The position numbers were made by a program, and so were the translations under genes. Shown piece after piece: positions 49,120 to 49,779 of a DNA stretch of 64,000 nt (the first letter of the stretch is position 1; each line of letters opens with the position of its first letter). The DNA is from Patescibacteria group bacterium (GTDB lineage: Bacteria > Patescibacteriota > Minisyncoccia > Phycocordibacterales > Phycocordibacteraceae), in the NCBI GenBank assembly GCA_004322365.1, contig SCTS01000007.1, forward strand, positions 18,266 to 82,265, read 5' to 3'. The notes under the pieces were generated by a model. The model was not told where the DNA came from. It worked only from the letters and a program-made list of their open reading frames with translations, and searched no databases.

Positions 49120-49779
49120 TTAAGTTCCCTGTGCAAAAAGAGCTTTGAAAATCTTAGTTCTTTTTCGCTTGAGGCAAGGAACCGTAGGAGAATAATACAT
49201 GTTTTTGATAATTTTTAAAGACTCTGCCTTAGCATATTTTAATTGATATACAGATGCAGTTCTGCCATGTGTAATATGTCCGTGCACATTTAGAAGGTGC
49301 CCTAATTTTGAACGAATCCAATCGATGTGCTCTTTACTTGCACTCACAAAGACTAAATAAAACATAAAGCTTGATTTCCAGCGTTTATCCCAATATGAAT
49401 GGAAGCTTCCATCTCCATCATGATGCCCGCGCAAAAAATCAAAGAAGTATTTATCGGGAATATTTAACAATCCAATAGTTCTCGTTTTGTTCGGAGTAAG
49501 TCCAATACTTAAAAGAAATTTATACAAAATAACATCTCCAAATTGAATACGACCTGTCATCGCATTAGTGGAGCCCGATTTTTTTGTTCCAATTTTCACC
49601 TTTATATCGAGACACTTCATAAAAGTCTCCCGCTGTGCACGGTCTTTTGAAGTTAACTCAATATGTCGGCCATCATTAGAAAGAGACCCGTCTGTAGCAA
49701 TAAGCCCAATGGCATAGCCCAAGTTAGAAGACCACACGATAGGTACTTTTCTTTTTGGTGGTGACCCTGGCTTGCCCAT
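49120..49779 (-). CDS. free-standing LAGLIDADG homing endonuclease (two-motif, single-chain)
   Basis: Motif 1 GYAIGLIATDGSL, motif 2 DFLRGHHDGDGSF. The gene ends 10 nt before the tRNA-Leu 5' end on the same strand. Confidence 0.85.
   Translation of the reverse strand: MGKPGSPPKRKVPIVWSSNLGYAIGLIATDGSLSNDGRHIELTSKDRAQRETFMKCLDIKVKIGTKKSGSTNAMTGRIQFGDVILYKFLLSIGLTPNKTRTIGLLNIPDKYFFDFLRGHHDGDGSFHSYWDKRWKSSFMFYLVFVSASKEHIDWIRSKLGHLLNVHGHITHGRTASVYQLKYAKAESLKIIKNMYYSPTVPCLKRKRTKIFKALFAQGT

Follow-up and report, generated by a model that had tools for sequence, protein, structure and literature searches.

What does a LAGLIDADG homing-endonuclease gene do on a bacterial chromosome when no intron surrounds it and its stop codon lies 9 nt from the 5' end of a tRNA gene? 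This question is raised by a stretch of 64,000 nucleotides from a Patescibacteria genome (contig SCTS01000007.1, hereafter the window), in which such an open reading frame (ORF) has been found between rplS, the gene of ribosomal protein L19, and a complete tRNA-Leu(GAG) gene. The reading that we favor, with a probability of roughly 0.7, is that the ORF belongs to a selfish homing-endonuclease element of Patescibacteria that does without an intron and is specific for their tRNA-Leu(GAG) gene, its cleavage of this gene being a prediction. The unit, to all appearances mobile, consists of a predicted promoter, the LAGLIDADG ORF and a complete copy of tRNA-Leu(GAG), and sits inside the resident tRNA gene. 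Of the latter, the 5' part has been kept as a non-functional stub that ends near position 38, where the anticodon loop has its 3' edge. As the tRNA copy of the element takes over the function of the disrupted gene, the host would suffer no harm from the insertion, despite the lack of an intron that could be spliced out.

Judged from its sequence and modelled fold, the ORF is an intact, free-standing and intron-less LAGLIDADG endonuclease gene, for the product of which site-specific DNA cleavage is predicted. The 219-aa protein has been matched to Pfam LAGLIDADG_3 (E 7.5e-7) and to phrog_4645 of PHROGs, annotated as 'endonuclease' (E 3e-26), and its nearest solved relative by sequence is I-Tsp061I, an archaeal rRNA-intron enzyme (2dch, E 1e-6), at an identity of only ~23%. 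The double motif on which an earlier, sequence-only reading of the window had based its assignment is present as quoted (GLIATDGSL, residues 25-33, and HHDGDGSF, residues 119-126), and the catalytic acidic residues are intact, D30 and D123 being invariant in family alignments of 37 and 42 sequences. The same invariance has been observed for G25, D30 and G31 of the first motif and for D121, G122, D123 and G124 of the second, while L26 is invariant in the alignment of 37 sequences and conserved to at least 90% in that of 42. An AlphaFold2 model obtained with 42 homologs (pLDDT 90.7, pTM 0.88) has shown a two-domain LAGLIDADG fold, in which helices and strands follow the order expected for two tandem alpha-beta-beta-alpha-beta-beta-alpha domains. 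Among the structural matches returned by Foldseek for this model, I-Tsp061I ranks first and the N-domain of WhiA second and third; an intein endonuclease domain, I-AniI, I-DmoI, I-SceI and maturases have been matched as well, with a probability of 1.00 for I-Tsp061I, I-DmoI, I-AniI and I-SceI. The Pfam WhiA domain has scored below its cutoff on the protein, and no extra helix-turn-helix (HTH) domain has been found in it. Since no group I or group II intron model of Rfam matches the region 48700..49950 of the window, even at E<=1, the ORF is properly called free-standing, as had been stated from the letters alone; it is also co-directional with the tRNA-Leu/tRNA-His pair located by ARAGORN, all three genes lying on the minus strand. 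The genomic context is chromosomal, with ribosomal and housekeeping genes as neighbors, and phage relatives of the protein are only 23-27% identical. The family is large, with 3376 clusters at 90% identity and E<=1e-3, and with 108 representatives at E<=1e-30 and 3973 at E<=1e-3 in a library clustered at 50% identity. The matches listed are 59-79% identical to the protein (apart from one at 99%), are mostly 210-230 aa long, and the source names given for them are mostly those of Patescibacteria.

The contexts of homologs have been collected by exact sequence, which yielded 7, including Jorgensenbacteria, Pacebacteria and an 'Omnitrophica'-labelled bin, and by a genome scan, which added 7 loci (6 of them new), 3 of these from Saccharibacteria; individual loci are referred to by L numbers. 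In all 22 distinct occupied loci, the ORF is followed directly by tRNA-Leu(GAG) on its own strand, the tRNA starting at positions that range from an overlap of up to 88 nt with the ORF to a gap of 52 nt after its stop codon. The gene upstream is rplS in most loci, the exceptions being L022 and L104, in which the link between tRNA-Leu(GAG) and the ORF nevertheless persists, and tRNA-His follows in only some loci, so that its linkage to the element is not conserved. As both rplS and tRNA-His vary among loci, the conserved pair is that of the endonuclease gene and tRNA-Leu(GAG).

The first five contexts all presented rplS followed by the ORF, as would a conserved operon with a housekeeping gene, and this possibility has been ruled out because most rplS-anchored loci turned out to be empty. 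For this count, metagenome contigs were scanned with an rplS alignment, 80 loci were kept with the ORF disregarded in the choice, and occupancy was scored by tblastn with the endonuclease family together with ARAGORN. Of 60 evaluable loci, 50 have been found empty and 10 occupied (about 17%, or ~1 in 6), eight with a complete ORF and two with an ORF cut by the contig end. In 47 of the 50 empty loci, the first nucleotide of tRNA-Leu(GAG) falls within -15 to +150 nt of the rplS stop codon, with a median of ~10 nt, and what these loci show is the ancestral arrangement, a tRNA-Leu(GAG) gene ~10 nt after the rplS stop codon; the shortness of this spacing leads us to infer co-transcription of the two genes. 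In occupied loci, the distance from rplS to the tRNA has increased to 734-858 nt (1534 nt in L021, the only exception), and the ORF starts 64-179 nt past the rplS stop. The inserted unit thus measured is only ~750 bp long, and no integrase accompanies it in most loci. Decayed endonuclease remnants were considered for three long 'empty' spacers (L048, L072 and L038) and have been ruled out, as the ORFs in them are unrelated. Occupied loci are interspersed among empty ones, the nearest rplS in the sample belonging to an empty locus for 12 of 19 occupied loci. An ORF that is found in ~17% of relatives, and always at the same site on the scale of nucleotides, bears the classic signature of a homing-endonuclease gene rather than that of a housekeeping gene.

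The position of the unit with respect to the tRNA gene is revealed by an orphan 5' fragment of tRNA-Leu(GAG) upstream of the ORF. What the stub of the window retains are the D-loop, the 3' side of the D-stem, the anticodon loop CTTGAGG and, in degenerate form, the anticodon stem. When the spacers from rplS to the ORF were printed, the consensus aaTTGGTAkACGCTATAwACTTGAGGTAT has been recognized just upstream of the ORF in most occupied loci, and in this shared sequence the D-loop/D-stem 3' side, the degenerate strand of the anticodon stem and the anticodon loop are all correctly spaced. A profile of the tRNA-Leu 5' half, built from empty loci only, has matched 8 of 20 spacers in nhmmer searches (best E 1.8e-8) and nothing in 790 kb of control sequence drawn from the same loci. 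A regular expression for the stub motif has been found in 15 of the 20 spacers and not once in the control, and in the whole window it matches only the stub and the real tRNA-Leu. Longer stubs have been preserved in three loci. That of L100 comprises positions 1-38 of a tRNA of the resident type (nhmmer E 1.8e-8) and begins 6 nt past the rplS stop, which is exactly where the tRNA starts in empty sites; L069 and L067 retain partial 5' fragments of the tRNA. The acceptor strand of the L100 stub, gcccagg, is unable to pair with the 3' end cccgcgc of the functional tRNA downstream, which has its own arm (gcgcggg...cccgcgc), and the functional tRNA is consequently another allele than the interrupted one. 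In L021, ~860 nt of extra sequence (2135..3000) have come to lie between rplS and the stub, which remains 19 nt before the ORF, and in L104, where rplS is missing, the stub is still directly upstream of the ORF. From both cases it follows that the stub travels with the ORF and not with rplS. Read from these fragments, the element is placed inside a tRNA-Leu(GAG) gene, with its left junction at ~38/39 and a complete tRNA copy on its right.

Regarding expression, the promoter predicted for the endonuclease gene overlaps the stub, and its -10 hexamer falls inside the degenerate anticodon stem, just 6 nt before the ATG, for which reason the endonuclease mRNA may be leaderless. The degenerate anticodon stem of the window stub thus appears to have been turned into the -10 box of the endonuclease promoter; in many homologous loci, TGnTATAAT is found just after the stub. 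The 14-bp hairpin that follows rplS likely serves as its terminator; in this way the rplS operon and the endonuclease gene would be insulated from each other. Hairpin-plus-T-run sequences, which are non-homologous, have been noted by eye at the same place in many occupied loci. Downstream, tRNA-Leu and tRNA-His would be transcribed behind the endonuclease ORF, and the tRNA-Leu(GAG) has been found to fold as a cloverleaf with a long variable arm.

Table 1. Positions of the features discussed in the text; coordinates refer to the window unless another locus is named.
Feature	Position	Strand	Basis and remarks
LAGLIDADG homing-endonuclease gene	49120..49779	-	219 aa, ATG start, single chain, two motifs
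First LAGLIDADG motif YAIGLIATDGSL, residues 22-33	49681..49716	-	holds catalytic D30
Second LAGLIDADG motif FDFLRGHHDGDGSF, residues 113-126	49402..49443	-	holds catalytic D123
Orphan 5' fragment of tRNA-Leu(GAG), aaattggtagacgctatatacttgaggt	49780..49807	-	ends at endonuclease ATG
Predicted promoter TTTAAA-18-TATACT	49786..49815	-	consensus scan; overlaps stub
14-bp hairpin and U-run after rplS	49815..49845	-	terminator scan; RNA fold -20.7 kcal/mol, z -3.7
tRNA-Leu(GAG), complete	49026..49110	-	ARAGORN; Rfam tRNA 43 bits
tRNA-His(GUG)	48892..48964	-	ARAGORN; co-directional with ORF
rplS (ribosomal protein L19)	49865..50446	-	Pfam Ribosomal_L19, E 7e-34
HNH endonuclease ORF, 159 aa	58953..59432	+	Pfam HNH; ends 1 nt before tRNA-Ser(UGA)
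tRNA-Ser(UGA)	59434..59521	+	ARAGORN
208-aa ORF downstream of tRNA-Ser	59716..60342	+	low-GC patch (0.33-0.35)
LAGLIDADG paralog, 44% identical, both motifs intact	L071 6322..7062	+	overlaps 5' end of tRNA-Phe(GAA) at 7053

In the mechanism that we propose, the enzyme would cut tRNA-Leu(GAG) alleles that lack the endonuclease gene, at a site within or close to the anticodon arm, and the broken allele would receive promoter, ORF and linked tRNA when an occupied allele serves as the template of repair. Homology for this repair would be provided by the stub on the left and by the 3' half of the tRNA or the downstream flank on the right. The tRNA copy of the element would escape cutting through substitutions, for which positions 26, 44 and 10-11 are candidates, and spread between cells would depend on DNA uptake; Patescibacteria are thought to exchange DNA through natural competence. 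Comparing ORF-linked tRNAs with those of empty sites, we have observed the largest differences at positions 26, 44 and 10. An A at position 26 (standard numbering) has been found in 58% of empty but 5% of occupied loci (p 1.7e-5), and the D-stem variant Y10-U11 in 9 of 21 occupied loci compared with 3 of 50 empty ones (p 5e-4). The commonest anticodon arm of empty sites, CTACCTTGAGGTGGTAG, is present in 21 of the 50 empty and in 2 of the 21 occupied loci, and the empty-type arm is exemplified by the alleles of L024 and L036 (ACTACCTTGAGGTGGTAG). Based on these allele differences and on the junction at 38/39, one may hypothesize that the recognition region is the anticodon arm, possibly reaching into the D-arm, and that the linked tRNA copy is resistant.

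The history of the gene has been approached through its divergence. The host belongs to the Patescibacteria, or candidate phyla radiation (CPR), and the window shares ~85% DNA identity with a contig of 'Parcubacteria group bacterium Greene0714_7'. Compared with the ortholog in that genome, the ORF has yielded a ratio of nonsynonymous to synonymous substitution rates (dN/dS) of 0.10 at a dS of 1.47, the neighboring genes having dS values of 0.25-0.79. The endonuclease is 79% identical at the protein level, uppS 94%, rluD 91% and rplS 98%; the tRNA-Leu genes are identical, and the stub and promoter regions differ by a single 1-nt indel. All ORFs examined in full are intact, and the ORF is AT-richer than its own locus in 19 of 19 loci, by a mean of 7.7 points. 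Over 171 pairs of occupied loci, the identity of the ORF (0.42-0.79) has shown no correlation with that of rplS (0.38-0.99; Spearman -0.03), as illustrated by L006 and L014, with 72% ORF identity at 56% rplS identity, and by L023 and L040, with 57% at 80%. Such a decoupling of ORF and host divergence would fit horizontal spread. The relation between tRNA-Leu identity and ORF identity is weak (rho 0.21, Mantel p about 0.05), too weak to be decisive, and this argument has been dropped. Two further comparisons have been set aside. Co-conversion was sought in L010 with L036, its nearest partner across the occupied/empty divide, where the tRNAs are 70-77% identical, a value that says nothing because the genomes themselves share only ~74% DNA identity. 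Likewise, comparing tRNA-Leu with tRNA-Val, tRNA-Phe and tRNA-Gly near L100 and L067 has had no resolving power, all of these tRNAs being 70-80% identical.

The sequence-only reading had proposed a homing-like drive without an intron, in which a cassette at the 3' side of the tRNA gene is copied in. The drive itself has gained ground through the polymorphism at a single site (10 loci occupied, 50 empty), the intact ORFs, the dN/dS of 0.10 and the decoupling from the host; the unit that appears to move, however, is not a 3' cassette. The link of the nucleases to tRNA-3' cassettes has found no support. What lies directly 3' of tRNA-Leu (48980..49011), tRNA-His (~48849..48891) and tRNA-Ser (59522..59562) are long, GC-rich and near-perfect hairpins, whose sequences are by eye unrelated to one another; that of tRNA-His runs into a stretch of T, is terminator-like and has been matched in the terminator scan.

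Several points speak against a selfish element of this kind. We infer its target, its cut site and its mechanism of immunity alike. For transfer between species, only short homology arms of about 25-40 nt are at hand, and the loci examined include no closely related pair of an occupied and an empty site, L010 and L036 with their ~74% being the closest. The strict orphan motif is lacking in 5 of the 20 spacers, two of which (L100 and L067) have been matched by the 5'-half profile, and the p values of the tRNA position tests are leads only, as the loci are treated as independent despite their shared ancestry. The missing correlation between ORF and host could result from a fast saturation of non-core residues instead of transfer; in genomes that share 98-99% identity in rplS, the ORF shares 79%. 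Finally, the GC content of the ORF tracks that of the host (r 0.85), as would be expected if the gene stayed for long periods between transfers and was inherited mostly vertically within lineages.

With these points in mind, one may ask whether the protein is a domesticated host factor of the LAGLIDADG fold, i.e., a non-mobile DNA- or RNA-binding regulator, or a maturase-like helper in the processing of tRNA-Leu or of rRNA introns, which is kept beside tRNA-Leu for co-expression. The strong purifying selection, the intactness of all copies examined, a protein identity of 54-65% across distant lineages that is similar to that of rplS, and the drift of the ORF toward host GC would all agree with this, and there is precedent among LAGLIDADG folds, WhiA and maturases being found among the structural matches. 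A host function is nevertheless difficult to reconcile with a gene that is present in only ~17% of related loci and interspersed with empty ones, that has both catalytic Asp invariant, unlike WhiA, that has acquired no extra HTH domain, and whose orphan stub records an insertion inside a tRNA gene. Moreover, families of the HNH and GIY-YIG type occur at the same position of other tRNAs (see below), which argues for mobility and not for one shared host function, and we regard domestication as unlikely. The 5' flank of tRNA-Leu might otherwise be a mere safe harbor for an enzyme whose real target lies elsewhere, in rplS or at a distance, or that has spread within a larger integrating element. 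Free-standing phage endonucleases can cut DNA at a certain distance from the gene that encodes them, the upstream neighbor is usually rplS, and in L014 both the tRNA-Leu and the 3' end of the LAGLIDADG ORF are overlapped by a serine recombinase gene of opposite orientation (5582..7279, minus strand). Yet the link to tRNA-Leu(GAG) outlasts the absence of rplS in L022 and L104, the stub places the point of breakage and joining inside the tRNA gene, the inserted unit of ~750 bp comes without an integrase in most loci, and the tRNA alleles of occupied and empty sites differ, so that the safe harbor appears quite improbable to us.

An origin from an intron has also to be considered, in which the ORF would once have resided within a group I intron, inserted into the anticodon loop of tRNA-Leu(GAG), and would now be an immobile relic that is passed on by descent, its ribozyme having been lost after a duplication of the tRNA. 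The junction at ~38/39 lies in the anticodon loop, where group I introns of tRNAs insert, Patescibacteria are rich in such introns (PMC13011429), and I-Tsp061I, the closest solved relative, is intron-encoded. One homologous locus, L061, contains a group I intron elsewhere (5219..5469, minus strand; Rfam Intron_gpI, 67.9 bits), ~500 nt past the tRNA-Leu/tRNA-Val pair and in opposite orientation to it; this intron is unconnected with the endonuclease gene and probably lies within an undetected tRNA gene. No ribozyme signal overlapping the ORF has been detected in the window or in any of the 20 homologous loci scanned, and hence the homologs examined are not intron-embedded, so that neither of the two objections foreseen in the sequence-only reading, lost catalytic residues and intron-embedded homologs, applies; in most loci the non-coding flank of 0-30 nt would leave no room for a ribozyme. 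An immobile relic should furthermore decay, whereas the ORFs are intact and under selection, and the patchy distribution and the decoupling from the host would still require transfer. We hold a relic to be very unlikely, and the selfish tRNA-Leu(GAG) element remains the reading on which the following is based.

Endonuclease ORFs have been observed at the 5' ends of further tRNA genes. That a second endonuclease family is tied to tRNA had been suspected from the window alone and has been borne out by the HNH ORF, which lies directly 5' of tRNA-Ser(UGA) both in the window and in three distant homologs (L108, L109 and L110) with unrelated neighborhoods; the family comprises 1156 clusters, those listed being mostly 62-71% identical. 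Upstream of these HNH genes no convincing orphan tRNA-Ser stub has been found, only a shared promoter-like GTGGTATACT box before the start codon. Of the three endonuclease folds that had been claimed for tRNA loci, LAGLIDADG and HNH have been confirmed by Pfam, and for the third no support has been obtained, as the ORF at 59716..60342 has given no match in Pfam, PHROGs or PDB sequences and no similarity to nucleases has been detected. The LAGLIDADG paralog at tRNA-Phe(GAA) is found in L071, a contig on which the rplS/tRNA-Leu(GAG) site is empty, and for this reason members of the family may have switched to other tRNA targets; no convincing orphan tRNA-Phe stub precedes this paralog. HNH-like ORFs (CxxC...DFDH...CxNCH) are located before tRNA-Arg(UCU) in L003 (tRNA at 3256), L044 (2655) and L048 (1266), and a GIY-YIG ORF (Pfam E 2e-12) takes this place in L050 (tRNA at 412). 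ORFs of ~220-230 aa stand before tRNA-Gly(GCC), tRNA-Val(GAC) and tRNA-Ile(UAU) in L061 (6330), L087 (2262) and L095 (2823); at full length they combine an N-terminal HTH with a LAGLIDADG-like motif (YWAEGYK, YLAEGGK or YWGEGSK), and a 160-aa ORF near the contig end in L074 (tRNA-Val at 582) has only the YLAEGGK motif.

That endonuclease genes park at the 5' ends of tRNAs thus holds up as a general idea. More tentatively, and with more doubt than confidence on our side, a Patescibacteria guild of intron-less homing endonucleases can be envisaged, each dedicated to one tRNA gene, spreading by cutting its endonuclease-free alleles and by copying in both the endonuclease gene itself and a replacement tRNA. 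The cases that may belong to it are LAGLIDADG with tRNA-Leu(GAG), its paralog with tRNA-Phe(GAA), HNH with tRNA-Ser(UGA), HNH-like and GIY-YIG with tRNA-Arg(UCU), and the HTH and LAGLIDADG-like ORFs with tRNA-Gly, tRNA-Val and tRNA-Ile. If such a guild existed, its members would be 'tRNA gene drives' by which the tRNA genes of the hosts are overwritten again and again across lineages, and the failure of the tRNA-Leu sequence to follow host phylogeny would thereby be accounted for as well.

Some features of the neighboring genes have been noted in passing. The rplS product of the window has 193 aa in total, with a long Ala/Glu/Lys-rich C-terminal extension of low complexity that recurs in L001, L003, L010 and L021, and measures only 102-106 aa in other CPR lineages (L006, L014 and L020). 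The 23S rRNA gene at the edge of the window (1..2751, minus strand) is cut by that edge and covers model positions 1-2609 over 2751 nt, with no large insertion evident in the visible part. The 16S rRNA match of L014 (650..3769, plus strand) spans 3120 nt for a model of 1533 nt and must hold ~1.6 kb of insertions; a GIY-YIG ORF is located within it at 1073..1351.

The enzyme family and the logic of homing are known, and what is new are the target, the cellular setting and an architecture that supplies a copy of the disrupted gene. The paper on endonucleases of rRNA insertions in Patescibacteria makes no mention of tRNA, free-standing, rplS or L19 (PMC11270868), and that on tRNA group I introns no mention of free-standing, its LAGLIDADG enzymes belonging to rRNA introns and to a cyanobacterial tRNA-Arg intron (PMC13011429). 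Literature on free-standing or intron-less homing at tRNA genes has been found for phages and mitochondria only, in a search of incomplete coverage, so that a prior description is possible. If correct, the tRNA-Leu(GAG) element would widen the range of intron-less homing beyond T-even phages, so as to include the chromosomes of a large and poorly understood bacterial phylum. It would also represent a third route, beside introns and inteins, by which an essential gene can be invaded without harm, namely by carrying the replacement copy along. The tRNA genes of Patescibacteria are perhaps recurrently overwritten by selfish elements, which bears on tRNA evolution and gene flow. For meganuclease engineering, thousands of natural LAGLIDADG variants directed at one defined target class would become available as raw material, and database labels of family proteins such as 'hypothetical protein' or 'intein-containing protein' would be corrected.

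Among known systems, I-Tsp061I and I-DmoI share the fold and the two LAGLIDADG motifs in one chain. WhiA is likewise a free-standing bacterial gene product of LAGLIDADG fold; it is devoid of the catalytic acidic residues, carries an HTH at its C-terminus and occurs almost universally in its clades, whereas the protein described here keeps both Asp, has no HTH and occurs in about 17% of loci. In the rps3 gene of fungal mitochondria, endonuclease genes have been inserted together with a duplication of the displaced gene end, and integrases use an attP that carries a tRNA 3' end. Both resemble the present element in that a copy of the disrupted gene part is brought along, a fragment is left behind and no splicing is needed; they differ from it in that the host gene is here a tRNA, of which the 5' part stays behind as the stub, and that the tRNA is supplied in full. 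Unlike the case of the integrases, double-strand-break repair is presumed here in place of site-specific recombination, and the unit contains no integrase. The LAGLIDADG enzymes of CPR rRNA insertions occur in the same host phylum (PMC11270868), but they and their archaeal counterparts reside inside rRNA intervening sequences, whereas the present ORF is intron-less and has a tRNA gene as its putative target. With the Seg and Mob type of phage T4, the element has in common its placement beside conserved genes and its absence at the same position in relatives; the GIY-YIG or HNH family and the phage genome that characterize this type are replaced here by a LAGLIDADG fold and a chromosomal setting. 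The closest analogue is T4 SegB, a free-standing GIY-YIG endonuclease in the T4 tRNA cluster that recognizes a conserved tRNA motif and targets relatives lacking its gene, the gene and the flanking tRNA genes being inherited together (PMC2330249). The present endonuclease gene is likewise free-standing at tRNA genes, and its empty and occupied alleles fit the SegB logic. SegB, however, is of the GIY-YIG type, is encoded in a phage genome and acts in co-infection, whereas here a LAGLIDADG enzyme, for which cleavage is predicted from sequence, is found on cellular chromosomes across a bacterial phylum and appears dedicated to a single tRNA species. Its gene, moreover, is inserted inside that tRNA gene, with an orphan 5' stub on one side and a full replacement tRNA on the other.

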